NCBI GenBank assembly: GCA_014379585.1
Contig: JACMLN010000098.1
Coordinates: 1 to 64,000, forward strand
Reading direction: 5' to 3'
Length of the DNA: 64,000 nucleotides
Source: Gloeobacterales cyanobacterium ES-bin-313
GTDB lineage: Bacteria > Cyanobacteriota > Cyanobacteriia > Gloeobacterales > Gloeobacteraceae
Shown here: piece by piece, positions 5,787 to 30,926 of the stretch
Layout: each line of letters opens with the position of its first letter
How positions within the stretch are numbered: the first letter of the stretch is position 1
Notes under the pieces: model-generated
Databases searched by the model: none
Seen by the model: the letters and a program-made list of their open reading frames with translations, nothing else
Told to the model about the DNA's origin: nothing
Position numbers and translations under genes: made by a program

Positions 5787-7292
5787 TTACTCTGAAGAAT
5801 CTAAGCGGCGCTGAAGTGAGCCGAGTAGCCCTTGTTTGCGCGAAGCAGATCGGGCTTTACCAGCCGCAGCCCACTGCTGAAGGGCGACAATTTGCTCTTC
5901 GGCGGTGCGTGCGAGGGGAACGATCTGGGCAATGGCCTGGACAATATCGTCGGTCGTAAAGTCGCGATTCTGAGAAAAACCGATATGCATCGCTTCGACA
6001 ATCACTTGCTCGATTTCAGCGCCGCTAAAGTCGGGGGTTTCGTAGGCGAGGCGTTCGAGGTCGTAAGCGCGCAGATTGTGGGGACGCAATTTATTCAGGT
6101 GCACTTGGAAGATCTCGGCGCGCTCGATTTGGCTTGGCAAGTTGACAAAAAAGACTTCGTCGAAGCGGCCTTTGCGCAACAGTTCTGGGGGCAGGCGGTG
6201 AATATCGTTGGCGGTGGCAACGACAAAAACGGGTGACGTTTTCTCGGCCATCCAGGTAAGAAACGTGCCGAAAACGCGGCTTGCGGTTCCAGCGTCGCCT
6301 CCTTGTAAGTTGCCGAAGGATTTGTCAATTTCGTCCGCAAACAGCACACAGGGCGCGAGGGCTTCAGCCAGTTGAATCATCTGGCGGGTGCGCGCTTCCG
6401 ACTCGCCGACCAAGCCTGCAAACAGCCGACCAACATCGAGTCTGAGCAGAGGCAAGTGCCAGTGATGGGCGATGGCGCGGGCAGTGAGCGATTTTCCCGT
6501 TCCTTGAATACCGACAAGGAGCAACCCCCGTGGGTGGGGCAAACCGTAGCGGCGAGCTTGATCGCTAAAAGCAGCTCCTCGCTGAATTAGCCAGTCTTTG
6601 AGTTGATCGAGGCCACCGATATCGGCGATTGCTTCTGTGGCTGGATAAAATTCGAGAATTTGGGTTTGGCGAATTTTTTGTTTTTTCTCTTCAAGGATCA
6701 GCTCAACATCGGAACTATCCAGAGACCCACTGCGGGCAATCGCCTTGGCGAGTACTTGGCGAATCCGATTCAAAGAAAGTCCCTGACAGGCTTTGACTAA
6801 CTCTTCGCGCTCAGATCCGCTCAGGGTATTGCGTTCGCCTAGCAACTTTTGCACCTCTTGATCGATCTCCACTGCTCCAGGCAAAGAAAATTCAAGTACC
6901 GTCATCTCTTCGGCCAGATCCAAAGGCACGACCAAACGCGGTGCCAAGATCACGATTGTTTTGGCCTGAGAACGCAGACGACGAGCCAAATTCCGCAACT
7001 TGCGACCTACAGAAATATCTTCGAGGAACCGATGAAAGTCGCGCAGCAAGAAAATCGCTTGGGTTTCGGGTCTAGCCCGTTCAACAAATTCCAACGCTTG
7101 GAGGGGATTACTGCGGGCGGTTCCTGCGTCTACCCCTTCTTGCTGGTAGCCTTCCACAAAGTCCCAGCAGTAGACCATCCGCCGAGCGACTTGGGCAATC
7201 GCCTGCTCTGCTCGCTCTTCCTCCGCCGTGACGACATAGATCAGAGGGTAGCGGGCGCGAATTAACAAATCCAATTCCGAGGCAAAGTCCAT
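5787..7292 (-). CDS. ycf46: AAA+ ATPase, Ycf46-like
   Basis: Walker A GIQGTGKS, Walker B VLFADEID, second region of homology with arginine finger (RKGRFDE); about 500 aa with a 230-aa N-terminal domain, as in cyanobacterial/plastid Ycf46. Confidence 0.55.
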
Positions 7293-7473
7293 TCCGACAG
7301 CATCAATGGCGGCTCTTCTATTATCAGTCCCCTAGCTAGCAACGATCCTAAGCAGATCTAGAAAAGTGCAAGTAGGCCGTTATTGCTTTTAATGTGAGCA
7401 TCTTTCTAGAACGTGCTGGCAAAATTTTATCTGGGATTTTATAATCTTTATAAGAACTATAAACAAATCGGTT

Positions 7474-7836
7474 ATGGCCACCAGCAAAGCGAAGAAAGTC
7501 GTGACAGCGTACTCAGATGTAGAGTCTGCGAAGGCGATCCATGCAATTGCCCGTGCAGAGTCACGCTCAGTGGCTCAGGTAGCGGGAGCTGCACTCAAGC
7601 TATACGTGCAGTTAAGCACAGATGTACGCAGCACTTTACGGGAACTCGAAGGAGACGAGGAGGCGTTTAGGCATCTGATGCAACAGATTTCGCGGGTTGT
7701 CAGGGCCGAACGCTTCGATACTGCAGCCCGCAAGGTGGCCAAGTCTTTACCCGAAAATGTCTTCGTTCCAGAAGACGAAGACGCCATTCTGTCCATGGCA
7801 GTAGATGCTGTAAGTGCTCAGGAGACTGCTTCTTGA
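7474..7836 (+). CDS. ribbon-helix-helix-like putative antitoxin
   Basis: Small protein with an N-terminal beta-strand/helix pattern; 4-nt ATGA overlap with the downstream PIN-like gene. Confidence 0.45.
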   Translation: MATSKAKKVVTAYSDVESAKAIHAIARAESRSVAQVAGAALKLYVQLSTDVRSTLRELEGDEEAFRHLMQQISRVVRAERFDTAARKVAKSLPENVFVPEDEDAILSMAVDAVSAQETAS

Positions 7837-8375
7837 AACAAGGGGATTCCCCAGCAGTCTGGCGAGTCTTGCTAGACTTAAACATTTTTGTGGCCTATTT
7901 CTTGGGTTTAAGCAAGGGACGTAAGGGGACTGCGGCACAGTTTCTTGTCGAAAGTGTTCGCGATGGGACCTGCACTTTGGGCCCGCTGCAACTGGTTGTT
8001 TCTTGGGGGATGCTCAACCGTCTTGAATTGGTCTTACTACGATTTGGTTACGATCCTCTCGCTATCCAAGGATTTACCGAGGCAGTCGCTGAACTCTCCA
8101 GGTTGGGACCATTCAAGGAGTTTCCGACTGTGACCCTTGGTGGAATCGGTGTTGTTGCCCTCAAAGATGAGGAGGATGCCCATGTACTCACAACTGCAAT
8201 GGCTGGGCGAGCAAAAATACTGGTCACGGCAAATTTCAGAGATTTTGATGACGATATGGTTCAGATTGTGCCCGGTAGGATCGGTGAAATAAAATACCCT
8301 GAGCATTCTTTACTTGTGGTCAATCCTCACATCGCAGCGCGTTGGTTCCGAGAGGGAAATATTGATCTTCGTTAA
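7833..8375 (+). CDS. PIN-domain-like putative toxin
   Basis: N-terminal VLLDLNIF (acidic residue in beta1) and later ILVTANFRDF segments typical of PIN nucleases; translationally coupled to the upstream small gene. Confidence 0.5.
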   Translation: MKQGDSPAVWRVLLDLNIFVAYFLGLSKGRKGTAAQFLVESVRDGTCTLGPLQLVVSWGMLNRLELVLLRFGYDPLAIQGFTEAVAELSRLGPFKEFPTVTLGGIGVVALKDEEDAHVLTTAMAGRAKILVTANFRDFDDDMVQIVPGRIGEIKYPEHSLLVVNPHIAARWFREGNIDLR

Positions 8376-8442
8376 GCTGTACAGCCATCACCTAGAGCGT
8401 CAATACCGAGTGTTAAGGTGAGGGAAGCAGGACAAAGAGCGG

Positions 8443-9012
8443 ATGATGAGCAAATTTTTGACAGTTGAGGGGGAAGTCCTCGGTTATCTTCCCAACCGAT
8501 ACGGAATCCATAATCGGGTGCAGATTAGCACTGATCAAGGCGAATTGATGGTCAAGTTCCCGAAAGAATGGAGCCACCGCATCTACAGTTCGATTGCCGT
8601 TGGAGAAAAGGTTCAGGTGCGCGGCAAGCTCAAAGAGGATGACGAAGGAACGCTATACCTGAAGGCAGAAGTTGTACTTCATCTGAAAGATGCTGTACGG
8701 GTAAGTGTTGGCCCAAGCCAGTTACCTACAGAAGAAGTCATACCACCAACACTCCCAACTGCGCGAGTACTCGTCTGTACAAAATCTGACTGCTGCAAGC
8801 GTGGGGCAAAACAGTTAGTGAAGTCGTTGGAAGAGTCAGTGGAGCGCTACGGACTGCAAGATCAAGTGACGATTCAAACCACTGGTTGCATGAAGAGATG
8901 CAAAGAAGGGCCGAATTTGGTGATCATGCCCCAGAAATCTCGGTACAGTAATGTGCGGCCAGCCCAAGCACCAGAACTGCTCTTGCGCGAGATTCTTCCA
9001 AAAGTGGAGTAA
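8443..9012 (+). CDS. protein with a C-terminal thioredoxin-like [2Fe-2S] ferredoxin domain fused to an unknown N-terminal domain
   Basis: Cys cluster VLVCTKSDCCKRG ... TGCMKRCKEGPNLVIMP matches the NuoE-type 2Fe-2S ferredoxin pattern. Confidence 0.5.
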   Translation: MMSKFLTVEGEVLGYLPNRYGIHNRVQISTDQGELMVKFPKEWSHRIYSSIAVGEKVQVRGKLKEDDEGTLYLKAEVVLHLKDAVRVSVGPSQLPTEEVIPPTLPTARVLVCTKSDCCKRGAKQLVKSLEESVERYGLQDQVTIQTTGCMKRCKEGPNLVIMPQKSRYSNVRPAQAPELLLREILPKVE

Positions 9013-9015
9013 ATC

Positions 9016-9897
9016 ATGTTTGAAATTCGTCGGGATATTGGTCCATTTGAAGAGTGCGAACTCATCGATCACAAGGCCAACTCCCGTGTACAGGTTTTTC
9101 CGGGACGGGGTGGAATCATCACCAGTTTTACTATCGAGGGCAAAGAACTCTTCTACCTCGAAAAAGATACGATCCTTGACACAACCCGCTCGGTACGTGG
9201 TGGAAATCCAATTCTTTTCCCCCTCTGTGGCGGCTTGCCCGATGATACTTACCAATTCAAAGACATCTCCTACAAGATCAAGCAACACGGATTTGGTCGT
9301 ACGAATGCGTGGAAAGTGACCGGGGAAGATACCGAAGATGCTGCAATCCTCACCATCGAACTGACCTCAGACGAAACCACTCTGGCCTCTTTTCCTTTTC
9401 ACTTCACGGTGAAATATCACTACATTCTCAAGGGCAACACCCTCACGATCCGCCAGGAATACATCAACCGAGGTTACATCCACGATCCGGAAGTGGCGAT
9501 GCCTTTTGCCACAGGCTTCCATCCTTACTTTCTCGCAACAGATAAGTCCAAGCTGCAATTCGATCTTCCTGCAAGCCAATACGTCGATCACGTCAGTGGC
9601 GAACCGAGCACCTTCAAAGGCTTCCCATTTGAAGCGCCAGTGATCGATTGGGTCTTTACCGATGTCCACAGCCCAATTGCCATAGTCACGAATCCAACCG
9701 ATGGCTACCGCCTCACCTTAAAAAGTGAGAATGTCTATAAGTATTTAGTTTTCTGGACATTGATCGGCAAGGATTTCTTCTGCCTTGAGCCGTGGACTGC
9801 CCGCCGCAATGCCCTCAATACAGGCACAGATCTGCAGTACGTCCCACCCCGTAGCAGCCTGACCTTCGAATTCTCTATGGTAGGGGAACTGCTCTAG
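9016..9897 (+). CDS. aldose 1-epimerase family protein (hexose-6-phosphate mutarotase-like)
   Basis: GGNPILFPLCG motif and 293-aa beta-sandwich-like composition; 3-nt gap after the upstream gene. Confidence 0.7.
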   Translation: MFEIRRDIGPFEECELIDHKANSRVQVFPGRGGIITSFTIEGKELFYLEKDTILDTTRSVRGGNPILFPLCGGLPDDTYQFKDISYKIKQHGFGRTNAWKVTGEDTEDAAILTIELTSDETTLASFPFHFTVKYHYILKGNTLTIRQEYINRGYIHDPEVAMPFATGFHPYFLATDKSKLQFDLPASQYVDHVSGEPSTFKGFPFEAPVIDWVFTDVHSPIAIVTNPTDGYRLTLKSENVYKYLVFWTLIGKDFFCLEPWTARRNALNTGTDLQYVPPRSSLTFEFSMVGELL

Positions 9898-13954: not shown

Positions 13955-14027
13955 GCGCTCGTAGCCTAGGGGATCAGGCAACAAACTTCTAATTTGTCTT
14001 ACGTAGGTTCAAGTCCTACCGGGCGCA
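13955..14027 (+). tRNA. tRNA-Arg (anticodon UCU)
   Basis: Hand-folded cloverleaf: acceptor GCGCTCG/CGGGCGC, anticodon stem ACAAA/TTTGT, loop CTTCTAA, T-arm GTAGG-TTCAAGT-CCTAC, discriminator A; 73 nt. Confidence 0.8.
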
Positions 14028-14036
14028 CTCCAAGAC

Positions 14037-15777: not shown

Positions 15778-16008
15778 ATGGCAACGATTACGCTTCAAGA
15801 AGCACAAGCCAAATTGCCCGATCTCATTCACAATCTCAAACCGGGTGAAGAGTTGCTCATTACAGAGAATGAGCGTCCACTAGCAAAGCTAGTCGGGCAA
15901 TCGCTTTCGGTATCCCAACGTCCTGGGCCAGGGCTTTGTAAGGGAATGATAACCATCGTTGAAGATGATGATGAACACTTGCGGGACTTTGCCGATTACA
16001 TGCCATGA
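15778..16008 (+). CDS. Phd/YefM-like type II antitoxin
   Basis: MATITLQEAQAKLPDLI ... GEELLITENERPLAKLV pattern; ATGA overlap with the downstream PIN gene. Confidence 0.55.
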   Translation: MATITLQEAQAKLPDLIHNLKPGEELLITENERPLAKLVGQSLSVSQRPGPGLCKGMITIVEDDDEHLRDFADYMP

Positions 16009-16391
16009 GGTACCTTCTCGATTCCCATGTACTGCTCTGGTACACACTCGGCGAAGCGCAGCTCAGTGGTACGGCAAGCAGGTTGATTTTGGATGCAGCC
16101 AACGAAATTCTGATAAGTCCAGCATCTTACTGGGAGATTGCCATCAAAGTCAGCATTGGCAAACTCGCTTTGCATCAGCCCTACGAGGATTTTGTGGATG
16201 CGTGTCTAAACAGGTACGGTTTTACGATCCTTCCTATTACTCCAAAACATACGAATGCCTTGACCACGATGCTCTTTCACCACAAAGATCCATTTGATCG
16301 TCTCTTAGTGGCTCAGGCGCTGGTAGAAGAGATTCCCATCGTAAGTATCGATGTCATTCTCGATAAGTATGGGATCAAGCGTATCTGGTAG
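16005..16391 (+). CDS. vapC: PIN-domain VapC-family toxin
   Basis: YLLDSHVLLW, SPASYWEIAIK, DPFDRLLVAQA, IVSID conserved acidic residues. Confidence 0.8.
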   Translation: MRYLLDSHVLLWYTLGEAQLSGTASRLILDAANEILISPASYWEIAIKVSIGKLALHQPYEDFVDACLNRYGFTILPITPKHTNALTTMLFHHKDPFDRLLVAQALVEEIPIVSIDVILDKYGIKRIW

Positions 16392-16415
16392 CTAGAAGGC
16401 TGATTTGCCGTCAAG

Positions 16416-16510
16416 GCTGGTATCTTTTTACTGTTACCCCTACTACCTTCCCATGTTGCGTAGGCAGTTTACAACGCAAGCAATATTTGCGAGTTTGGGG
16501 TGGGCGTTTG
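16416..16510. repeat. direct repeat copy 2, overlapping the promoter, start codon and signal peptide of the downstream gene
   Basis: See copy 1. Confidence 0.85.
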
Positions 16511-17271
16511 CCAGTTTGCCCGCCCGCGCAGATCTAGAAGTGCCCCTTGAACCTTTTTTGCCCATCCCCGGTTGGCTTGGCTTTGCCACGGTAGTCGGCA
16601 AAAAGCCACAACGCTTTACTTGGTCACCCAGACATCCTAAGGCCCAAGTCGTCATTCCTGACCAAGAGCAATTTTGGCTGAAGTCTTCAGTCGGTACGAA
16701 ACTGATCGCCATCGACAGTACGGGTAGTGCTGGGGTGAATTCTCTGGGCTTCTCAGAACAGCGCTATGGCTGCGAGGGCAACACCATGGGTATGGCTGGG
16801 TTTAGCGGGAGCCGAACGTTGCGCGAAGGTCCTGTCTGGCTGTTGCCGGGAGATTCGACTGCGCGGGTCTTTGCTGTACCTGTCACTGAGAAATCCACAG
16901 GCAAACCACAAAGCTCGGTGCGGACGTGGAGTATTGGTTCTTACAATCTCACCCTTCGCAAGACGGCTGCCTACGCTGTCAAGCTTGACACGGCTTTCGG
17001 TGGTCGTACTCTCCTAAGTGAACCCCTCAAAGTGTTGGATATAGCTGGTGCCGAAAATCAACCTGTCAATCTTCCCAAACTTTTTGCACCCAACAGTCTT
17101 CAGCCCGGTATCCCCCGACCGATTGCGGCCTTCCAAATGGGTTTCGGAGCCCCTTTGGCAATTATTCTCTGGATTCCAGGCTTCGAGGGCAACGATTTTC
17201 AGTTGCTTCTTGCCGAATCGACCCAAGCACGCCGCATTGATGCTGCCTACTTCTATTCTTGCGCTTTTTAG
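16453..17271 (+). CDS. secreted hypothetical protein
   Basis: Signal peptide [26 protein letters not shown]; no catalytic motif. Confidence 0.45.
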   Translation: MLRRQFTTQAIFASLGWAFASLPARADLEVPLEPFLPIPGWLGFATVVGKKPQRFTWSPRHPKAQVVIPDQEQFWLKSSVGTKLIAIDSTGSAGVNSLGFSEQRYGCEGNTMGMAGFSGSRTLREGPVWLLPGDSTARVFAVPVTEKSTGKPQSSVRTWSIGSYNLTLRKTAAYAVKLDTAFGGRTLLSEPLKVLDIAGAENQPVNLPKLFAPNSLQPGIPRPIAAFQMGFGAPLAIILWIPGFEGNDFQLLLAESTQARRIDAAYFYSCAF

Positions 17272-17390
17272 CACTTAAAGTACATATAAAAACATGAAGT
17301 CAAGCTGGCACGCTTCAGAGCAATCAGGCTTACTTCTGTTTCTCAAGGCTAGGCGATTTAATTAGCTTGATCTGGCCAGGATCGTTCAGA

Positions 17391-17834
17391 TTACAAAAAC
17401 CAGCCTTCATCGTCAGCATCCTGGATCGGTGCAGGAAAAGAAATGACTTCGCGCTTCATATCGTTGGCTTTGGCGCGCAGAGGAACAAGAGCACTTTGTG
17501 GTTGTGCCGGAGCGAGGGTGGTCTGCGGTTTTGCCTCGACTTTCGCAGGTTTTTCAAGCTTTGCAATGCGCTCTAGAAGCTCTTGCTCGCGCTTGCCACT
17601 GGCTGCTTTTGCGTCCTTCAAAAAGGCTTCGAGTTCAGCAACACGTTTGGCAAGGTCTGCTTCGTGGCGATGTTTTTCTGAAACTATCGGCTTTTCAGCT
17701 TCAGATAGCTGTTCAGATAGGGCTGCAATTTGCTCTTCGGCGCGGCCAAGGGCGGTTCGCAGTTCAACAATCGTCACTTCAAGATCTGCTTTGGTCGGAA
17801 CGCGTCTAGGGGTATTCATCGGGGTCTCACTCAT
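17391..17834 (-). CDS. coiled-coil hypothetical protein, last gene of the rbc operon
   Basis: E/K/A-rich heptad-like sequence; 8-nt overlap with the raf1 stop. Confidence 0.45.
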   Translation of the reverse strand: MSETPMNTPRRVPTKADLEVTIVELRTALGRAEEQIAALSEQLSEAEKPIVSEKHRHEADLAKRVAELEAFLKDAKAASGKREQELLERIAKLEKPAKVEAKPQTTLAPAQPQSALVPLRAKANDMKREVISFPAPIQDADDEGWFL

Positions 17835-18843
17835 CGGTCTGCCAGGGATCTTTCACGAGTTCTTCATCGAGAATAATCCTAGCGCGCAAAATCAAAATCA
17901 CTTGCCCTAAAAGGGCGGTTTCAGCTTCTTCAGCGAACCACTGTACCCCGGTAGCCGTGAGAAAATAGGCTTCTTGATCCCAGGTTTGTTGTTTGCGGTC
18001 TACGACTACGAGAACTTCTTCGAGCCGTCCTTCAAGACCGAGATCCGCGCTCGTTGCCAGAATAACGACTGGATCTACTGCTTTTTGGATCACTTGCCAA
18101 CCAGGCAGGGCAACCCACTGGGCACTGCTGCCAGAAGCCACCCGAAAAGGGCCAGATTCTGCCACGGCTGGCGCCGATTGCACGACCTCAACAGCAATAG
18201 GCAGACGACCCAACACCGGGAAGACGCGGGGGAGTTCCTCGCCATCTTCGAGGCGGTAGGTGGGCAGACGGGGGGCACGCGCCTTAGGTGACTCTGCCAT
18301 CTGCATCAATAAAGCTTCAATTTCTTTGCGGGCGGTTTCGCTGTGAGCCGAAGAAAGTCCCTGGGCGATCAAACGCGACCGCTCCCGGATGTCTTCGGTC
18401 TGCTTCGCCAACTTCCAGCAGCGGTAAGCAAGGGCATCCCCTGGGTGTTTCGTAAATCCAGGCGGGGGCGAATAGCCTTTCATCGCCCGGACAAGTTCGT
18501 GGGTGCGATCCACATCCAAACCTTTGGCTTGAATAAACGTCGCAGCCTCGACCCGCTCTGGCCCAGTCAGCACGCGCAACTCGTACAAAACATTGCTGCC
18601 GCTCTGCTCAAAGTGGGCAAGCACTTCAGCAGCGGCGGCAGCTTTTTCAAGGCTCCCAAAGACTTGGGAGCTGACGATGAACTGATTTTGGCGCGACGGC
18701 TCGAACCCCGTAGCCTCAAAGATGACCTGGGGGTCAATGCGCTGCTCCTGCAGTTGGTGGCACTTCTGTCCCCACTGCACCCAGTTGCCTTCCTTGCGGC
18801 GCAGGGAAAAGAGCAACGCTTCGGCGTCGAACGCTTCTGTCAT
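17827..18843 (-). CDS. raf1: Rubisco accumulation factor 1
   Basis: RRKEGNW, FEATGFEP, HPGDALAYRCWKLA, ERSRLIAQGL, W.ALPGWQ and VVVVDR segments as remembered for Raf1; start ATG overlaps the rbcS stop (TAATG). Confidence 0.7.
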   Translation of the reverse strand: MTEAFDAEALLFSLRRKEGNWVQWGQKCHQLQEQRIDPQVIFEATGFEPSRQNQFIVSSQVFGSLEKAAAAAEVLAHFEQSGSNVLYELRVLTGPERVEAATFIQAKGLDVDRTHELVRAMKGYSPPPGFTKHPGDALAYRCWKLAKQTEDIRERSRLIAQGLSSAHSETARKEIEALLMQMAESPKARAPRLPTYRLEDGEELPRVFPVLGRLPIAVEVVQSAPAVAESGPFRVASGSSAQWVALPGWQVIQKAVDPVVILATSADLGLEGRLEEVLVVVDRKQQTWDQEAYFLTATGVQWFAEEAETALLGQVILILRARIILDEELVKDPWQTDE

Positions 18844-19184
18844 TAGGGCTTGTAGACGATGAAGCTCGCCGCTTGACACTGACGGATGTTGTCGAAGCCG
18901 ATCATCCGCACGTAGCAGTTGGGGTAGGCTTTGCGGCAAGCATCGACTTCAGCGATCACTTCGTGGGTGCTCTTCGCACCGAGCAAAGGCAGTTTCCAAA
19001 GAGTCCAGTAGTGAACGGTCGGTTCGCTGGTTTCGTTGAATTCGATGGCGGGGATGTAACCCTTGTCGAGCATGTACTGCACCTGCTTGGTGATTTCCAA
19101 GTCGGTCAAGGGGGGCAGGTAGGACATGGTCTCGAAGTGACGCTTCTTGGGCAAAGTCTGCATGGTCATGCTCCTAAGTGGCAA
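18843..19184 (-). CDS. rbcS: RuBisCO small subunit
   Basis: [21 protein letters not shown] ... typical RbcS. Confidence 0.95.
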
Positions 19185-19188
19185 TAAT

Positions 19189-19566
19189 TTACTCGATTTC
19201 AGGCGGTTCTTCGCGACTCTCTGGAGATTGCAGTTGCATGGCGCGCTCCATGAACTGGGTCTGCTGCTGCTGGTTGGCTTGGCGCATTCCGGTCTTTGTT
19301 AATTCCGGCAGGCGATCAGCAATGGTCTCAGCGATGTGGGCACGAACCTCCATGACCCGAAAGGCCATGGCTGGATTCTCTGCAAAGAGGCGCTGCAGGT
19401 ACTCCTCACCGTCTTGGATGGCTGTCTGGCCCGAAAATCTTCGAAACCAAACGCTTTGCTTGGGATCCATTTCGCTCAACTGTTCGGCGATGGTGCGCAC
19501 TGCCTGGTATGTGAGGTAGGTGATCAACACCTTAGTTGTAGCGTCCGTGATCGTCTTGAAATCCAT
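19189..19566 (-). CDS. rbcX: RuBisCO assembly chaperone RbcX
   Basis: 125-aa helical protein between rbcL and rbcS; [16 protein letters not shown]-like N-terminus. Confidence 0.75.
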
Positions 19567-19595
19567 AGACGGTGGGGTACCGACAATGCGTGGGC

Positions 19596-21020
19596 TTAGA
19601 GTTTATCGACGGCTTCGTATTCGAACTTGATTTCCTTCCAGAGTTCGCAGGCGGCAGCCAGTTCAGGACTCCAGCGGCAAGCTTCACGGATGATGTCTCC
19701 GCCTTCGCGCATCAAGTTGCGGCCTTCGTTGCGTGCCTTGAGGCAGGCTTCGAGGGCGACGCGGTTTGCTGTCGCGCCCGGTGCGTTGCCCCAGGGGTGA
19801 CCGAGGGTTCCACCACCGAACTGAAGCACGGAGTCATCGCCGAAGATGTCTACGAGGGCAGGCATGTGCCACACGTGGATACCACCGGAGGCAACAGCCA
19901 TGACACCAGGAAGCGAGGCCCAATCTTGGGTGAAGTAGATACCACGAGAGAGATCGCGTTCGACGTGGTCTTCGCGGAGCAAGTCTACGAAGCCCATGGT
20001 CGAAGCACGTTCGCCTTCGAGCTTACCGACGACGGTGCCTGTGTGGATGTGGTCACCACCGGAGAGGCGCAAGGTCTTCGCCAAGACGCGGAAGTGGATA
20101 CCGTGGTTCTTTTGACGGTCAATAACAGCGTGCATCGCACGGTGAATATGCAGCAACATACCGTTGGCACGGCACCAGCGAGACAAGGACGTATTGGCGG
20201 TGAAACCAGCCGTCAAGTAGTCGTGCATGATGATCGGGGAACCGATTTCTTTGGCGAATTCGGCGCGCTCGAACATTTGTTCGACAGTGGGTGCGGTGCA
20301 GTTCAGGTAGTGACCCTTGATTTCGCCTGTTTCTGCTTGAGACTTGGAGATCGCATCTTGCACAAACAAGAAACGGTCGCGCCAGCGCATAAAGGGCTGG
20401 GAGTTAATGTTTTCGTCGTCCTTGGTGAAGTCCAAACCACCACGGAGACATTCGTACACGGCACGTCCGTAGTTCTTGGCGGACAGACCCAATTTGGGCT
20501 TGATGGTACAGCCAAGCAACGGACGACCGTACTTGTTGATTTTGTCGCGCTCAACGATGATGCCGTGGGGAGGCCCTTCGAAGGTCTTTGCGTAGGCAAT
20601 CGGGATGCGGATGTCTTCGAGGCGAAGGGCTTTGAGCGCTTTGAACCCGAATACGTTACCGACCAACGAAGTGAGCAAGTTGGTGACGGAACCTTCCTCA
20701 AACAAGTCCAGAGGATAGGCGATGTAGCAGATAAACTGGTTGTCTTCGCCAGCAACTTGCTCGATGTCGTAGCAGCGACCCTTGTAGCGATCTAGCTCCG
20801 TGAGCATGTCTGTCCAAACAGTCGTCCAGGTACCTGTGGAGGATTCTGCCGCAACAGCTGCTGCCGCTTCTTCAATCGGTACACCCGGCTGGGGTGTTAC
20901 ACGAAAAGCCGCCAGGATGTCTGTATCTCTTGGGGTGTAATCTGGGGTGTAATAGGTGAGCCGATAATCTTTAACGCCGGCTTGGAAACCACCTTTGTTC
21001 ATGGTCTGTGAGTACGACAC
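19596..21020 (-). CDS. rbcL: RuBisCO large subunit, form IB (probable GTG start at 21020, not the ATG at 21041)
   Basis: Full-length RbcL with [14 protein letters not shown] and catalytic-loop motifs; AAGGAGG lies 5 nt upstream of GTG 21020-21018. Confidence 0.95.
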
Positions 21021-21127
21021 GTCTACCTCCTTAAGTCTCATTGGTCAACGCGTAGGAGTCGTCGCTTCGCATTGCCTATGCAAAGCATCGTAGTAGTGTA
21101 GGGTTTATGAGTAAAGTCAATGATCCT

Positions 21128-21158
21128 TATGGATAGAGTAGAGTTTAGTCTATCCATA
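21128..21158. promoter_or_regulatory. LysR-type (T-N11-A) palindromic operator candidate between the divergent rbcL and ndhF3 operons
   Basis: TATGGATAGA-N11-TCTATCCATA, perfect 10-bp inverted arms read directly. Confidence 0.45.
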
Positions 21159-21353
21159 ATCTTTACTTTATGGGTCTATCAGACTTCTTTATACCCTAAC
21201 TTTAAAAATTGATCCAGAACGCAAATTTATGTTTCCATGAGGCAACAGAAAGCATAAACAAAAATCTATTCTTTTTATAAAAATCATTGACTTTTCATAA
21301 TGCAAAACCTTCTCTATCCTGATTTGCAGGACTGGTAGTAGGTATCGCGGATC

Positions 21354-23159
21354 ATGGCCGAAACGTTCATTCACTCTGTATGGCTGATTCCTTGTTATGG
21401 AATCGTTGGGATGCTCTTTGCCTTGCCTTGGTTTCCAGGGGTCATCCGGCGCACAGGCCCACGGCCTTCGGGGTATGTCAATCTCTTAATGACCCTATTC
21501 GGATTTTTGCACAGTCTTTTCACCTTTGTTTTGGTGTGGGGAAAGCCGGCACAGACCGAAAGTTTCACCTGGCTAGAGGCGGCAAACTTGAAGCTCAGCT
21601 TTGGATTTGAGATTTCTTCCTTGAGTGTTGGTGCCTTGGTGCTCATTACAGGACTTAACTTCCTGTCTCAAATCTTCGCAATTGGCTATCTAGAGATGGA
21701 TTGGGGTTGGGCACGGCTCTTTGCCCTCCTCGGTCTTTTTGAAGCAGGCATGGCAGCGCTCGTGCTTTGCGACAATTTATTTTTTAGCTACTGCATCCTC
21801 GAAATTCTGACCCTCGGCACCTACTTACTCGTTGGGTTCTGGTTTAACCAATCCTTGGTGGTATCGGGAGCGCGGGACGCTTTTTTGACAAAGCGCATCG
21901 GCGACTTATTGCTACTCATGGGCGTGATCGCTCTGCTCCCCTTGGCAGGTTCATGGAACTATCAAGATCTGGCACGTTGGGCGGCGAGAACAACTATCGA
22001 TCCGACCCTGGCAACCCTGCTGGGGCTGGCACTGATCTCTGGCCCCATCGGCAAATGTGCCCAGTTTCCCCTGCACCTCTGGCTCGATGAAGCCATGGAA
22101 GGACCACTGCCAGCGACTATTTTGAGAAATTCTTTAGTCGTCACCACGGGCGCATGGGTTTTAGTCAAAATCGCACCGATCCTTGCCCTATCGCCTGTAG
22201 TTTTAGGCACCTTAATTGTGATTGGTAGCATCAGCGCAGTCGGTGGCTCCTTGATCGCCATCGCCCAGATCGATATCAAACGCGCTCTTTCTTTCTTGGT
22301 CAGTGCCTACTTAGGACTCGTTTTCATCGCCGTTGGTATTGGTCAAACCCAAGAAGCCCTACTTTTAATCCTCACCTTTTCGCTCTCCATGGCTTTGCTT
22401 GTGATGAGTGTAGGAGGAATTATCTGGAACTGCATGACCCAAGATCTTACCCAGTTTGGCGGACTGTGGTCGCGTCGTCCCATCTCAGCCATTGCTTTTC
22501 TTGTTGGTGCTGCAGGACTGGTTGCCTTTCCGCCTTTGGGAAGTTTCTGGGCTTTCCTGCAATTGGCTGAACAGGTTTCGCCCTGGCTGGTAGGGCTATT
22601 GCTGTTAGTGAACACCTTGACAGCGTTTGGTCTTGGGCGCGTTTTTGGGCTTGTCTTTGCTGGTGCAACCCATCCGATGACCGAACGGGCTCCGGAAGTG
22701 CACTGGCCAATGATGGTACCGACGACGCTCCTAGCTGGCTTCGTTCTCCATCTACCCATTGTGCTCTGGCAAGTTCAGCTCATACCAGCCCAATGGATCG
22801 ACACGACTTTGCTGTTTGCGATTGCACTTTCGACAAGCAGCATCTTCGGGGGGATTGCTGGTTTTCGTCTGCGATTGGCGCAACTACCCTGGCCTCGTGT
22901 CCAAGAGATGCTCGCTCGCGACTTTTACACAGGCGATATCTATCGGTTGAGTGTCGTTTTTGCAGTAGCACAAATATCCCAGATAGTTTCAATTGTTGAC
23001 CGCTACTTTGTCGATGGCCTGGTGAATTTGGTAGGCTATTTCTCGCTTCTGGGCGGCGAAAGTCTCAAGTATAGTACCAGCGGTAGAACCCAATTTTATG
23101 CCCTCACAATCCTGCTGGGAATTGTTGCTATGGGCTGTGCTGTTGCTGTGCATTTCTAG
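21354..23159 (+). CDS. ndhF3: NDH-1 subunit F3 (CO2-uptake NDH-1MS)
   Basis: 601-aa NuoL/NdhF-like antiporter subunit followed by ndhD3-cupA. Confidence 0.8.
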   Translation: MAETFIHSVWLIPCYGIVGMLFALPWFPGVIRRTGPRPSGYVNLLMTLFGFLHSLFTFVLVWGKPAQTESFTWLEAANLKLSFGFEISSLSVGALVLITGLNFLSQIFAIGYLEMDWGWARLFALLGLFEAGMAALVLCDNLFFSYCILEILTLGTYLLVGFWFNQSLVVSGARDAFLTKRIGDLLLLMGVIALLPLAGSWNYQDLARWAARTTIDPTLATLLGLALISGPIGKCAQFPLHLWLDEAMEGPLPATILRNSLVVTTGAWVLVKIAPILALSPVVLGTLIVIGSISAVGGSLIAIAQIDIKRALSFLVSAYLGLVFIAVGIGQTQEALLLILTFSLSMALLVMSVGGIIWNCMTQDLTQFGGLWSRRPISAIAFLVGAAGLVAFPPLGSFWAFLQLAEQVSPWLVGLLLLVNTLTAFGLGRVFGLVFAGATHPMTERAPEVHWPMMVPTTLLAGFVLHLPIVLWQVQLIPAQWIDTTLLFAIALSTSSIFGGIAGFRLRLAQLPWPRVQEMLARDFYTGDIYRLSVVFAVAQISQIVSIVDRYFVDGLVNLVGYFSLLGGESLKYSTSGRTQFYALTILLGIVAMGCAVAVHF

Positions 23160-23180: not shown

Positions 23181-24671
23181 ATGTTGAGCGTCCTTGTTTG
23201 GCTGCCGATTATCGGTGCTGTGATCATTGGCCTACGCCCACAAAAGAACCAGGCAAGAAGCATCGCTCTGAGTGTTTCCTTCGGTTTGGTTGTTTGGAGT
23301 TTTTGGTTGCTCTTTCAATTCTCGTCCAGCCTTTCAACCATGCAGTTTATAGAAGCACTGCAATGGGTTCCGCAACTGGGTTTAAACTATCGTTTAGGCA
23401 TTGATGGACTTTCCTTGCCACTGGTCGTGCTTAGTTCAGTGCTAACTTGGGTTGCTATCTATAGCAGCAAGAGAGAGATTGAGCGCCCACGGCTTTACTA
23501 CGCACTGATCTTGTTGGTTAATGCGGGGTTAGCAGGCGGATTTTTGGTGCAAAACCTTTTGCTGTTTGCCCTGTTTTACGAATTAGAACTGGTGCCAATT
23601 TATTTGCTGATTGCGATCTGGGGTGGCACCGAAAGGCGTGGCTATGCTGCGATTAAATTTCTCACCTACACAGCTGTTTCTGGATTTCTGATTCTCTCGG
23701 CTTTCTTGGGTATTGGCTTTTTGGCGGGCAGTGAAGCATTCTCTTACAATCCGCAGTTGATCGCAGCTCTGCCGATTGCAACCCAAGTTGTTTTATTGAG
23801 CTTAATTTTGTTCGGCTTTGGGATCAAAATACCCCTCTTCCCCCTGCATACCTGGCTTCCCGATGCCTACGCCGAAGCTTCACCACCCGTCGCCATCTTG
23901 CTCGGTGGCGTGCTCGCCAAACTGGGAACCTACGGCCTAGTTCGCTTTGGCCTGAATCTTTTTCCTGAAGCCTGGCACCTGCTTGCCCCTGGATTGGCTG
24001 TCCTCGGTGCTGTGAGTGCGATTTACGGTTCCCTCGTTGCCCTCGCCCAAAAAGATATCAAGTTGATGGTGGCCTACAGTTCCATCGGTCACATGGGCTA
24101 TATTCTGCTCGCCATCGCTGCGGCAACGCCCCTGAGTCTTTTGGGTGCTGTTCTCCAAATGGTTAGCCACGGCTTGATCTTGGCCATGCTCTTCTATCTG
24201 GTGGGTCTCATCGAGGCGAAAGTCGGTACCCGCGACCTCGATGGCCTGAATGGCCTGATGAATCCCGTACGCGGCTTGCCTTTGATCAGTGCTCTGTTGA
24301 TTCTGGCAGGCATGGCCAGTGCTGGTATTCCTGGTCTCGTCGGATTTATCGCTGAATTTCTCGTCCTCCAGGGCAGCTTCGTTCCCTACCCAATTCCGAC
24401 CCTGCTCTGCGTCGTCTGTAGTGGTCTCACGGCGGTCTACTTCGTGATCTTGATCAGCCGCACCTGCTTCGGGAAATTGGACAATGCCACTGCTTATTAT
24501 CCAAGCGTGCTTTGGTCTGAACGCATACCAGCCCTGCTCTTGGCTGGCCTCATTCTCCTCTTTGGACTCCAGCCCTCTTGGCTCACCCACTGGAGCGAGA
24601 CCACCACGACCGCCCTTGCTAGCCAAATTAAAATCGCCGCCGCCGCCAACTTTCCAGGAGACCTGCCATGA
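23181..24671 (+). CDS. ndhD3: NDH-1 subunit D3
   Basis: 496-aa NuoM/NdhD-like; ATGA overlap with cupA. Confidence 0.8.
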   Translation: MLSVLVWLPIIGAVIIGLRPQKNQARSIALSVSFGLVVWSFWLLFQFSSSLSTMQFIEALQWVPQLGLNYRLGIDGLSLPLVVLSSVLTWVAIYSSKREIERPRLYYALILLVNAGLAGGFLVQNLLLFALFYELELVPIYLLIAIWGGTERRGYAAIKFLTYTAVSGFLILSAFLGIGFLAGSEAFSYNPQLIAALPIATQVVLLSLILFGFGIKIPLFPLHTWLPDAYAEASPPVAILLGGVLAKLGTYGLVRFGLNLFPEAWHLLAPGLAVLGAVSAIYGSLVALAQKDIKLMVAYSSIGHMGYILLAIAAATPLSLLGAVLQMVSHGLILAMLFYLVGLIEAKVGTRDLDGLNGLMNPVRGLPLISALLILAGMASAGIPGLVGFIAEFLVLQGSFVPYPIPTLLCVVCSGLTAVYFVILISRTCFGKLDNATAYYPSVLWSERIPALLLAGLILLFGLQPSWLTHWSETTTTALASQIKIAAAANFPGDLP

Positions 24672-25951
24672 CCGTTACTGCAACCAAGTTGCCACCTTCA
24701 AAGCATCCCTACGCCGAAGTCATCCACCGCCTCGAAGCCGGTGGTGCCATGCTCCCGGACACCCCCGAAAATCTCATGCAGATCATCGGTCTATACAAAG
24801 CCTACGCCGTCCCCATGGATTTTTACTGGCGGGATCTTTTGTATATTGCTGAACGCGTTTTTCTAGAGCCGTTGCCCTTCTTCAAGTACTTTTTGCCCAA
24901 GGAGTACCTCGACCTTCCCAACCACTACGCCGGAGACACCGCCGACCTGATGATCTGGCGGGGTCAAGCCACCGCCCACCCAGAACTACTCGCCTTTATG
25001 GAGCGGGGGGAAACAGGTAAAATGCCACGGCTTTTTCATCACCTTTGGCACGACCGGATCAACATGGAATTTGCCGAGATGTGTATGCGCAGTATGCTCT
25101 GGCATCGGGGCATGGGGGGGCGCTTCGATCCCTATCTCGATTCCGAAGAGTACAAAGCGAATGCCAACCGCGCCATCGAAGCCTACTTTCGGGGCAACCC
25201 GGCCATGCTCAGTCTTCACAAACTTTTTCCCGAAATGTTCTTAGAACAGTGCCGACAGATGTCCTACTACAGCAATCTCGGATTGTTCTGGGAAGTGATG
25301 GCTCCGGTTTTCTTTGAAATGTCAGATCTTTACGATGAAGGCAAGATGACGAGCGTCCCCCAGGCCATGCAATTTCTGGTAAATGGCATTTTCGCCATCG
25401 CCGGACGACCCATCTACCACCACGTTTACATCAAAGGGGAATGCTTCGAGATCATTCCAAAGTCAAAAGGATTCACATGGCTCTACGAAGCTGCCTTGCC
25501 CTACGTCGAAGCTGTCTTCTATCGAACCGCTCCTTTTCGGGGCACCAAGTCCTACAATGCTCAGGCGAACCAAATCCCCGCTGATCAAAAAGACTTTCAC
25601 TACGGAATTCTCTACGCCGATGTTTTTCCAGTCGGTACTGCCGGGATTCCGCCCACTCTTTTGATGCAGGATATGCTGCACTTCTTGCCACCCTACTTAG
25701 TTGAATATTACAGTAAATATTGCCGTGGCCAAGAAGACATGCTGATTCAACTCGGCGTTAGTTTTCAACGTTCGATGTTCTGTGTCACCTCCGCAGTCAT
25801 CCAGGCATTACGTCAGGCATTGCTCTATCCACTGGACGATCCCAATCCTCGCCATCTCCTCAAGAACCGCACTTTTTTCGAGGGACAAATGGATCGTTTC
25901 TTGCGCCCAGAAGCGAGACTTAACGCCATCCAAAACCAAGCCTATCGTTAA
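24668..25951 (+). CDS. cupA: CO2 hydration protein CupA/ChpY
   Basis: Soluble 427-aa protein in the canonical position after ndhD3. Confidence 0.8.
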   Translation: MTVTATKLPPSKHPYAEVIHRLEAGGAMLPDTPENLMQIIGLYKAYAVPMDFYWRDLLYIAERVFLEPLPFFKYFLPKEYLDLPNHYAGDTADLMIWRGQATAHPELLAFMERGETGKMPRLFHHLWHDRINMEFAEMCMRSMLWHRGMGGRFDPYLDSEEYKANANRAIEAYFRGNPAMLSLHKLFPEMFLEQCRQMSYYSNLGLFWEVMAPVFFEMSDLYDEGKMTSVPQAMQFLVNGIFAIAGRPIYHHVYIKGECFEIIPKSKGFTWLYEAALPYVEAVFYRTAPFRGTKSYNAQANQIPADQKDFHYGILYADVFPVGTAGIPPTLLMQDMLHFLPPYLVEYYSKYCRGQEDMLIQLGVSFQRSMFCVTSAVIQALRQALLYPLDDPNPRHLLKNRTFFEGQMDRFLRPEARLNAIQNQAYR

Positions 25952-26002: not shown

Positions 26003-26404
26003 ATGCCTACCATCGTCGATATTGCCATTTCATCGGACAGTTTCAAAACCCTTGTCGCCGCAGTTCAGGCGGCTGGATTGGTGGAAGTCTTACAAAGTCC
26101 TGGCCCCTTTACCGTCTTCGCCCCCACCGATCAAGCCTTTGCGAAACTCCCACCAGGAACGATTACTACCCTCGTTCAAAATCCACCCCAACTTGGCCGC
26201 ATTTTGACTTATCACGTCCTAGCAGGCAAGTTCACCTCCACTGATCTCGCCAAACAATCAACTTGGACTTCCGTGGAAGGTGCAGAAATTCCGATCAACT
26301 TTGAAGAAGGTTTTGAGGTCAAGAATGCAACAGTGATTGCCGCCGATATTGAAGCAGATAACGGAATTATTCATGTAATCGACAACGTCATCTTAATGGG
26401 TTGA
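26003..26404 (+). CDS. cupS: CupS-like small NDH-1MS subunit with a fasciclin (FAS1) fold
   Basis: [11 protein letters not shown] ... ILTYHV fasciclin motifs; synteny after cupA. Confidence 0.55.
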
Positions 26405-29912: not shown

Positions 29913-30926
29913 ATGCTTGACGAACATGAAATTTTAAACTGTCTTCCCTGTGGGGTTGTCATTACCGACCGAGAAGGCAGGATCTTGGTCTGGAACCGAG
30001 CCATGTCGAGCCTGAGTGGCTTATCGGCAGAAGAGATGGAAGGAACGCCGCTCCAGCAATGGCTTCCAGACATTGATCGTAGCCATGCAAGCATTGTTTT
30101 GCCTCACCGAGACCAATGGCTCGACGTGCGTGTCCATGGCCAAGATTTTAGTGGTGGTTGTGCGTGGACCTTTGTACAGGAGGTGCGACAAGAATTGGAT
30201 CAAGCCCAAGCAGATTTTGTCTCAACAGTCTCCCACGAATTGCGTACACCGCTCACCAGTATTAAGGGGTTCATCGATACGCTGTTGCGATCCGGCAACC
30301 AACTGAGCGAGAAGCAGCAACATCGTTTCCTCAAGATTGCCAAAAACCAAGCGGATCGGCTCACCCGTCTCGTCGAAGACATTTTGACGGTTTCTCGGAT
30401 CCAATCGGGCAGACTCAAGAATGTTCCCCAGCGCCTCGACTTGGCTGAGGTCATCGATCTTGTGCTAGAGAGTCTCTCCCAAAAATATGAAGCACGGCGA
30501 ATGCACATGCACTTGCCAAACGGTTTACCCGAAGTGTGGGCTGACCAAGATCGCTTGGAGCAAATTCTCACCAATTTGATCGACAATGCCCTCAAGTATT
30601 CTGAGAAAGATACCTGCGTAGATATCTATGCAAAACTCGATCCTGAGGATGAGAGTGTGCTCTGGATCTCCGTGCGCGATCAAGGCATCGGCATTCCCGA
30701 AGTGCATCTCGACCAACTGTTTAACCGCTTTAGTCGCATCGATTCTCCCCTCACCCGTGAGCGCGAAGGAACAGGACTTGGGCTCTATATTACAAAATCC
30801 CTCGTTGAAAGCCTCGGTGGCACTATCTTGGTCGAAAGCCAGTTCGGTCATGGCAGCATTTTTACTGTCTGCCTTCCTGCAGCGCAGCATCTTCCTATGC
30901 ATCTAGAGGAAGGGCTACATGCCTGA
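29913..30926 (+). CDS. cytoplasmic PAS-domain sensor histidine kinase
   Basis: PAS-like N-terminus, H-box SHELRTPL, and N/G1/G2 boxes GTGLGLYI. Confidence 0.85.
   Translation: MLDEHEILNCLPCGVVITDREGRILVWNRAMSSLSGLSAEEMEGTPLQQWLPDIDRSHASIVLPHRDQWLDVRVHGQDFSGGCAWTFVQEVRQELDQAQADFVSTVSHELRTPLTSIKGFIDTLLRSGNQLSEKQQHRFLKIAKNQADRLTRLVEDILTVSRIQSGRLKNVPQRLDLAEVIDLVLESLSQKYEARRMHMHLPNGLPEVWADQDRLEQILTNLIDNALKYSEKDTCVDIYAKLDPEDESVLWISVRDQGIGIPEVHLDQLFNRFSRIDSPLTREREGTGLGLYITKSLVESLGGTILVESQFGHGSIFTVCLPAAQHLPMHLEEGLHA

Follow-up and report, generated by a model that had tools for sequence, protein, structure and literature searches.

A compact Rubisco operon from a Gloeobacterales cyanobacterium with raf1 and a gene for a putative minimal McdB-like protein

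McdB is the adaptor that attaches carboxysomes to the McdAB positioning machinery; it also stimulates McdA and forms condensates. It diverges too fast for sequence search, and both the mechanism of its binding to carboxysomes and a suspected McdA-independent role are open questions. The subject of this work is a Rubisco gene cluster found in a 64,000-nucleotide stretch (positions 1 to 64,000 of contig JACMLN010000098.1, hereafter the window) of Gloeobacterales cyanobacterium ES-bin-313, an early-branching, thylakoid-less cyanobacterium. In this cluster rbcL, rbcX and rbcS are followed by raf1 and by a fifth open reading frame (ORF), named ORF5. With moderate confidence, the cluster is described here as a compact five-gene Rubisco operon in which ORF5 encodes a minimal, diverged McdB-like protein. 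The locus is an unusual arrangement of known parts and not a new kind of system.

The recipe reported for McdB is a polar, disordered protein whose N-terminus is charged, which has a coiled coil and in which one of the last four residues is a tryptophan (PMC7182216), this tryptophan being the only invariant McdB residue (PMC7182216, PMC11321042). In β-McdB proteins the last ten residues are enriched in aspartate, and the invariant tryptophan is required for carboxysome association (PMC11321042). The McdB proteins of Type 2 show a size of 132–394 amino acids, a coiled coil of 93 ± 25 amino acids and a C-terminal extension of 56 ± 16 amino acids, and mcdB is located near carboxysome or Rubisco genes in about 31% of the genomes and directly downstream of a ParA-type mcdA in about 82% of those with McdAB (PMC7182216). 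In Gloeobacter kilaueensis mcdA is expressed from the rbcL promoter with mcdB after it, and the McdB of this species loads onto Synechococcus elongatus carboxysomes (PMC6328274). In addition, mcdB-like genes without an adjacent mcdA were found near ccmK3/ccmK4, rbcR or ccaA in 19 species, and were read as a hint of an McdA-independent function (PMC7182216).

As in the Type 2 McdB proteins (PMC6328274, PMC7182216, PMC11321042), the product of ORF5 is small, polar and disordered in part, and has a coiled coil in its centre, a tail of typical length and an invariant tryptophan in the last four residues flanked by aspartate; it is encoded beside Rubisco genes and appears locally homologous to the positional McdB of another cyanobacterial locus (L006, see below). 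The Type 2 family is undetectable by BLAST, and ORF5 is likewise an orphan in database searches. It differs from Type 2 McdB in the lack of mcdA in the 64 kb, in an N-terminal extension of about 10 instead of about 60 amino acids, in the lack of a Q-rich segment and in its location after raf1. Gloeobacter kilaueensis JS1 (mcdA GKIL_0670, mcdB GKIL_0671), compared by its published description, belongs to the same order Gloeobacterales and also has its mcd genes at the 3′ end of the Rubisco operon; however, mcdA precedes mcdB there, whereas raf1 holds that place here. Like the orphan mcdB-like genes (PMC7182216), ORF5 is found beside a carboxysome-related gene with no mcdA alongside, but none of those genes was reported inside rbcLXS or joined to raf1. 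In view of these differences the ORF5 product, which judging from its sequence is probably a diverged minimal Type 2 McdB, is described as McdB-like and not filed as an established member of the family.

The ORF5 gene (17391–17834, minus strand; 147 amino acids) was characterized by dN/dS (ratio of non-synonymous to synonymous substitution rates), synteny, an AlphaFold2 model, heptad and charge analysis, and its similarity to the L006 McdB. The N-terminus of the deduced protein is short and basic, M(SETPM)NTPRRVPTK. The AlphaFold2 model together with the heptad analysis showed two helices (residues 15–46 and 54–94) predicted to form a heptad coiled coil of about 80 residues, with canonical a/d heptad residues (KLILLAILLA in helix 1) and mean predicted local distance difference test (pLDDT) values of 90–95 for the best 10-residue blocks of the helices. 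The tail (53 residues, 95–147) had mostly low pLDDT values, below 50 for residues 99–126, and is predicted to be disordered. It contains the C-terminal linear motif ANDMKREVISFPAPIQDADDEGWFL (17394–17468, minus strand), in which 22 of 25 positions are invariant across seven homologues. The consensus of this peptide is ANDMKREVISFPAPIxDADDEGWFL, with the tryptophan third from the end invariant in the seven homologues, and the last ten residues of ORF5, QDADDEGWFL, contain three aspartates and one glutamate (net charge −4). A tryptophan in the last four residues combined with at least three acidic residues in the last ten was present in 3 of 1435 background ORFs (0.2%). Apart from the ORF5 family and the L006 McdB, ribosomal protein S14 was all that passed a crude McdB-feature filter applied to about 2 Mb. 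The lengths of the coiled coil (80 amino acids) and of the C-terminal extension (53 amino acids), as well as the size of the protein, are all inside the Type 2 McdB ranges. Among the McdB features found in ORF5 are the terminal tryptophan, the C-terminal aspartate enrichment, the coiled-coil and tail lengths and the position near Rubisco genes.

When the first 82 fetched loci were searched by tblastn with ORF5, only one match fell outside its own family (E 3e-5); it was located in L006, a locus from the metagenome-assembled genome "Cyanobacteria bacterium QS_4_48_99". This locus contains a ParA-type gene of 217 amino acids with KGGVGKTTT, a double W and Pfam CbiA/AAA_31 matches, whose best match in the Protein Data Bank (PDB) was 3CWQ, a 209-amino-acid ParA-family partitioning protein. 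The 195-amino-acid ORF directly after it ends in DIGWVD and has a Q-rich coiled coil. Because of the ParA-type features of the first gene and the C-terminus and Q-rich coiled coil of the second, the two genes make, by sequence features, a textbook case of a positional Type 2 mcdA-mcdB pair. They are convergent on raf1, itself located about 1.7 kb downstream of rbcLXS. In the same locus a ChpXY-like gene, the Type 2 mcdA and mcdB are found in a row (7303–9710, minus strand), forming a dense neighbourhood of genes of the carbon-concentrating mechanism (CCM).

ORF5 and the L006 McdB have in common the sequence RR/RK-x-PTKADLE-x-T-x-x-EL at the entry of the coiled coil (PTKADLEVTIVEL in ORF5, 17760–17798, minus strand; PTKADLETTVTEL in the L006 McdB), detected by hhalign and a motif scan. 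This segment is non-repetitive, 11 of its 13 residues are identical, and the PTKADLE motif was limited to the ORF5 family and the L006 McdB when the window and about 2 Mb of fetched loci were scanned. The comparison with this single comparator gave a BLASTP E value of 1e-8 and an hhalign identity of 57% over 23 columns (E 2e-6, probability 89%). The Smith-Waterman score of 99 was not reached by any of 2000 shuffles, the z value being 8.1 when the shuffling was global and 5.8 when it was composition-local, in 20-amino-acid windows. Aligned in this way, ORF5 looks like the L006 McdB minus roughly its first 50 residues; the remaining ORF5 N-terminus, PRRVPTK, is basic and resembles the segment just before PTKADLE in the L006 protein. 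No match was obtained when the L006 McdB was used as a tblastn query against plasmids.

Several observations weigh against the assignment of ORF5 to McdB. The homology is to one comparator over about 25–75 aligned residues, partly coiled coil, and the similarity to L006 would lack significance at database scale. An exhaustive HMMER profile search of 1.84 billion representatives gave no McdB-like relatives; besides the ORF5 cluster itself, it returned one fragment (P0127) and two false positives of coiled-coil type. Only 9–14 amino acids make up the N-terminal extension, in contrast to the 60 ± 23 amino acids, highly charged, of Type 2 McdB. There is no Q-rich region: glutamine represents 4.8% of the residues, without a Q cluster in the helices, and the protein is rich in A, E, L and K. 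Finally, the gene upstream of ORF5 is raf1 and not mcdA, and in the 64-kb window neither a ParA or deviant Walker-A gene (regular-expression and Pfam scans) nor shell (ccm) genes were found.

Some of these observations would also be expected if ORF5 encoded an unrelated, lineage-restricted coiled-coil protein placed at the end of the operon, with McdB-like traits that are convergent or coincidental. At database scale ORF5 is an orphan: nothing but coiled-coil noise below the thresholds came out of the searches of Pfam, NCBIfam and PDB sequences, and a word-indexed search of 5.8 billion proteins retrieved just six ORF5 homologues (83–92% identity). Two hallmarks of McdB, a Q-rich region and a long charged extension at the N-terminus, are missing, and coiled-coil sequences inflate similarity scores. 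The annotation "chromosome segregation ATPase" given to the homologues by the Joint Genome Institute (JGI) was rejected, since the ORF5 protein has no nucleotide-binding motif and only 142 amino acids; that label arose purely from coiled-coil resemblance. However, the similarity to the L006 protein survives composition-preserving shuffling and is centred on a non-repetitive motif, the terminal W-acidic motif is rare among background ORFs, and the feature filter was nearly exclusive to the ORF5 family and the L006 McdB, apart from S14. In addition, the position at the end of the rbc operon matches that of mcdAB in Gloeobacter kilaueensis. An unrelated coiled-coil protein is accordingly considered unlikely. 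If the McdB reading is wrong, the locus would come down to an ordinary rearrangement of an operon, with a coiled-coil gene restricted to the lineage.

A different possibility is that ORF5 is a lineage-specific partner of Rubisco or Raf1, its C-terminal peptide docking on RbcL8 or Raf1 and its coiled coil bridging complexes, for instance in Rubisco condensation prior to encapsulation. ORF5 is tightly joined to raf1 and always found behind it in this lineage, the 25-residue C-terminal peptide is near-invariant as a docking motif would be, and there is no adjacent mcdA. On the other hand, no similarity to known Rubisco chaperones or linkers was found in the Pfam, NCBIfam and PDB searches, and in 160 other Raf1 loci raf1 was never followed by an ORF5-like gene, from which it follows that the function of Raf1 does not need ORF5. 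ORF5 has its sole significant similarity with a positional McdB, and the shell-binding motif published for McdB is matched by the ORF5 C-terminus. We therefore regard such a partner as improbable. The initial annotation had proposed the fifth gene as an additional Rubisco assembly or carboxysome-linkage factor; the McdB features and the L006 similarity favour carboxysome linkage, by an McdB-like adaptor, and nothing was found for a role in assembly.

For an McdB-like ORF5 the following mode of action can be proposed. A single transcript would start in the conserved rbcL/ndhF3 intergenic region and run through ORF5, the gene of the RbcL-dimer assembly chaperone Raf1 having been drawn into the rbc operon. 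Raf1 would probably be translated by re-initiation at the rbcS stop codon, and ORF5 probably likewise at the raf1 stop codon. The ORF5 protein may oligomerise through its heptad coiled coil of about 80 residues, and the disordered tail would present the W-acidic C-terminus DADDEGWFL for binding to the β-carboxysome surface, by analogy with the McdB experiments. The short basic N-terminus, TPRRVPTK, might engage an McdA of the ParA type whose gene is elsewhere in the genome; in a genome without McdA, ORF5 could act alone on carboxysome organisation. We infer both the carboxysome binding and the McdA partnership. The last position in the rbc operon would tie the supply of ORF5 to that of Rubisco, and hence to carboxysome production.

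A more specific form of this proposal, to which we give a rather small chance, is that ORF5 is an McdA-independent minimal McdB that lost the McdA-interacting N-terminal extension, with mcdA itself lost from the rbc operon of the lineage. The synthesis of ORF5 would keep a fixed ratio to that of Rubisco and Raf1, and the protein would act in carboxysome biogenesis, a possible role being the recruitment of shell proteins to nascent Rubisco condensates or the spacing of these. If this were true, the long-suspected positioning-independent function of McdB would be separated from the ParA-dependent one.

In terms of the McdB-like assignment, ORF5 would be a naturally minimal protein of this type, consisting of a coiled coil and a W-acidic tail, the N-terminal extension being almost absent. 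Should it bind carboxysomes, it would offer a compact test case for the parts sufficient for binding and for McdB working without McdA. Furthermore, the locus would indicate that one transcription unit, beside a CO2-uptake operon, can accommodate the genes of the Rubisco subunits, of both assembly chaperones (RbcX and Raf1) and of a carboxysome adaptor, which would be useful in considering minimal CCM modules.

ORF5 is a real conserved gene tied to the rbc cluster. The order rbcS-raf1-ORF5 is kept in five related metagenomic contigs (L001, L002, L167, L168 and L169), with ORF5 83–92% identical, and the gene beyond ORF5 varies among these relatives (a convergent gene of 272 amino acids or one of 834–837 amino acids). 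Pairwise Nei-Gojobori comparisons gave dN/dS values of 0.05–0.14 for ORF5 (dS 0.35–1.0), 0.03–0.06 for raf1 (dS 0.27–0.78) and about 0.01–0.1 for rbcS (dS 0.08–0.63). In the ORF5 frame 28–54 synonymous differences per pair were found vs 11–32 non-synonymous ones, and an in-frame indel of nine codons divides the homologues into two subgroups. The purifying selection and the synteny in five relatives bear out the earlier suggestion that the fifth ORF is a genuine gene of the cluster. A 155-amino-acid ORF (17443–17910, plus strand), antisense to ORF5 and to the end of raf1, was rejected as a gene, being a shadow of ORF5 with a substitution pattern that favours the minus-strand frame. The existence of this opposite-strand ORF and the lack of a family match for ORF5 might suggest that ORF5 is a spurious compositional or opposite-strand shadow and that the operon ends at raf1, but this is effectively refuted by the dN/dS in the ORF5 frame, with the in-frame indel, pLDDT values above 90 for the helices and independent annotation by the NCBI and JGI callers all pointing the same way, and it is extremely improbable.

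The five minus-strand ORFs listed in the initial annotation were all present at the coordinates given there, and rbcL, rbcX, rbcS, raf1 and ORF5 are consecutive from 21041 to 17391. By exact-sequence look-up the window matched the ES-bin-313 proteins MBC7881720–MBC7881727 of NCBI, where ORF5 appears as a 142-amino-acid hypothetical protein. A 2020 mBio article about a High Arctic glacier (PMC7701988) was retrieved under the name of this genome and may indicate its origin. The Rubisco large subunit gene rbcL (19596–21041, minus strand) was identified by the Pfam models RuBisCO_large (7e-138) and RuBisCO_large_N (2e-44). As its start codon, the GTG at 21020 is more probable than the ATG with which the longest ORF begins at 21041: an AAGGAGG sequence, conserved in the relative L001, is located 5 nt 5′ of this GTG. 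The rbcL product in L001 has 474 amino acids according to the gene caller used for that locus. The chaperone gene rbcX (19189–19566, minus strand) matched Pfam RbcX (8e-42), and a search with its product returned one near-identical protein. The small subunit gene rbcS (18843–19163, minus strand; Pfam RuBisCO_small 4e-42) encodes 106 amino acids from its most likely start at 19163, with AGGAG 7 nt 5′ of the ATG; the longest ORF would begin at a TTG at 19184. An exact-sequence look-up gave NCBI MBC7881722.1 as the exact 106-amino-acid RbcS product.

The distances from the rbcL stop to the rbcX start and from the rbcX stop to the rbcS start are 29 and 25 nt, respectively. By direct sequence reading, the rbcS stop codon TAA and the raf1 ATG were confirmed to share one base (−1 nt) in a TAATG junction (18841–18845, minus strand), as previously noted, and the same type of abutment was found in L001, L002, L168 and L169. 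The raf1 stop and the first possible ATG of ORF5 overlap by 8 nt, also as reported before, in the sequence ATGAGTGA (17827–17834, minus strand). The alternative ATG at 17819, used by NCBI and several other gene callers, is located 7 nt past the raf1 stop and would replace the overlap by a 7-nt spacer, giving a product of 142 amino acids (17819–17391). In the ORF5 family alignment the invariant residues begin with Met6, and conservation of the upstream ATG is partly forced by Raf1, because this ATG sits within the codons of the invariant Asp-Glu of Raf1. A longer N-terminus is impossible because of an in-frame stop six codons upstream of the first ATG. Both starts are compatible with translational coupling, which for raf1 and ORF5 seems a plausible consequence of this spacing. 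The statement that all five genes are translationally coupled holds as regards overlap for the last two junctions, but not for rbcL-rbcX and rbcX-rbcS, with their gaps of 29 and 25 nt. Start overlap alone is unremarkable, because overlapping starts are frequent elsewhere in the window, as exemplified by ndhD3/cupA (4 nt) and 30919–30926 (8 nt).

No intergenic terminators were found by consensus scan, the four predicted sites being all inside coding sequence and their number below the shuffle expectation; the consensus scans for terminators and promoters were uninformative. Minimum free energy folding of the 119 nt that separate ORF5 from the convergent gene gave a weak hairpin (17288–17343, minus strand), a possible terminator. 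Its stability was no better than that of shuffled sequences (z-score −0.42) and the consensus terminator scan gave nothing there. From the spacing of the genes and the absence of predicted terminators, co-transcription of the five genes may reasonably be assumed.

The product of raf1 (17827–18843, minus strand; 338 amino acids) is clearly Rubisco accumulation factor 1 by its sequence, as proposed in the initial annotation; the failure to match Raf1 models, named there as a refutation, was clearly not observed. The family is defined functionally by the binding of RbcL dimers and the promotion of RbcL8 assembly. The raf1 product matched Raf1_HTH (PF18579; 8e-26, 89.9 bits, cut-off 27.3), the α-helical domain Raf1_N (PF18578; 1e-35, 123 bits, cut-off 26.8) and the C-terminal β-sheet dimerisation domain RuBisCo_chap_C (PF18087; 3e-39, 134 bits, cut-off 25), all well above the Pfam cut-offs and together spanning residues 6–322. 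The sequence motifs from which the identification had been made were all present with the exception of VVVVDR, which is actually LVVVDR. An alignment of 20 Raf1 sequences has 69 invariant columns, including the W-Q-x-D-E C-terminus. At E ≤ 1e-10, 915 homologues were found, the nearest one outside the lineage with 56% identity. Scans of genomes and metagenomes with the Raf1 alignment gave no locus above 54% identity and recovered neither a Gloeobacter locus nor one from the lineage of the window itself.

The linkage of raf1 to the rbc genes was surveyed by tblastn in 160 Raf1 loci taken from species genomes in GTDB and from metagenomes of JGI, 127 of which, from other cyanobacteria, were informative, each with at least 3 kb of upstream sequence. 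No rbc gene was found within at least 3 kb upstream of raf1 in 118 of the 127, in agreement with the earlier remark that raf1 is usually unlinked to rbcLS. In the other nine rbcS was located upstream on the same strand, mostly 1.5–1.8 kb off. Linkage of raf1 to rbc is a recurrent minority state, and joining of rbcS and raf1 without a spacer was seen, among the surveyed loci, in the lineage of the window only. In L084 a Rubisco-activase-like gene (1519–2835; AAA, activase helical domain and small-subunit-like domain) is located between rbcS and raf1, and gaps sized as in L084 (1.5–1.8 kb) were found in L006, L011, L044, L048, L092, L103 and L104. If the same gene fills these seven gaps, rbcLXS-ALC-raf1 is a recurrent minority arrangement. 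The shortest rbcS-raf1 spacers outside the lineage were 124 nt in L113 and 513 nt in L083 (L083 and L084 were fetched separately). L083 and L113 contain the two closest Raf1 relatives examined outside the lineage (about 51–56% identity) and have in common the order adh_short, 1-Cys peroxiredoxin, rbcLXS and raf1, with no ORF5-like gene in either. In all ten of these clusters raf1 is likewise downstream of rbcS on the same strand, but they differ from the present locus in having no stop/start overlap and no ORF5-like gene after raf1. Since short spacers occur without ORF5 in L083 and L113, the linkage of raf1 to rbc may be older than the acquisition of ORF5.

Upstream of rbcL and divergent from it, the plus-strand genes at 21354–23159, 23181–24671 and 24668–25951 constitute an ndhF3-ndhD3-cupA (ChpXY) CO2-uptake operon (Pfam Proton_antipo_N/M, Proton_antipo_M and ChpXY 9e-166). 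As the two operons are divergent, Rubisco and inducible CO2 uptake share one control region of 333 bp (21021–21353). This region is 96% identical to that of L001, although the synonymous sites of the flanking genes have dS values of 0.56–0.86. It contains a palindrome with 14-nt arms, TTATGGATAGAGTA and TAGTCTATCCATAA (21127–21159), just upstream of TTGACT on the rbc strand. The palindrome might serve as the operator of a LysR-type CCM regulator. After cupA an ORF is found at 26003–26404; the syntenic L001 has a gene for a 133-amino-acid Fasciclin-domain protein after cupA.

On the other side of the cluster, the ORF convergent on ORF5 (16405–17271, plus strand; 272–288 amino acids) has a hydrophobic N-terminus and no Pfam or NCBIfam match. 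It is conserved in L001, L002 and L169, and a family-less gene of 834 amino acids is found instead in L166–L168. Between purM and this ORF there is a pair formed by a Phd/YefM-like antitoxin (15778–16008, plus strand; sub-threshold, 5e-5) and a PIN-domain toxin (16005–16391, plus strand; 4e-11), overlapping by 4 nt. The pair is missing from the same position in L002, so either it was inserted recently or a loss has occurred. Rfam and ARAGORN detected no RNA gene in the window other than a tRNA-Arg(TCT) (13955–14028, plus strand). About 10 kb from the rbc operon, a gene at 5787–7292 (minus strand) encodes a 501-amino-acid AAA+ ATPase (AAA 2e-32 and a lid domain).

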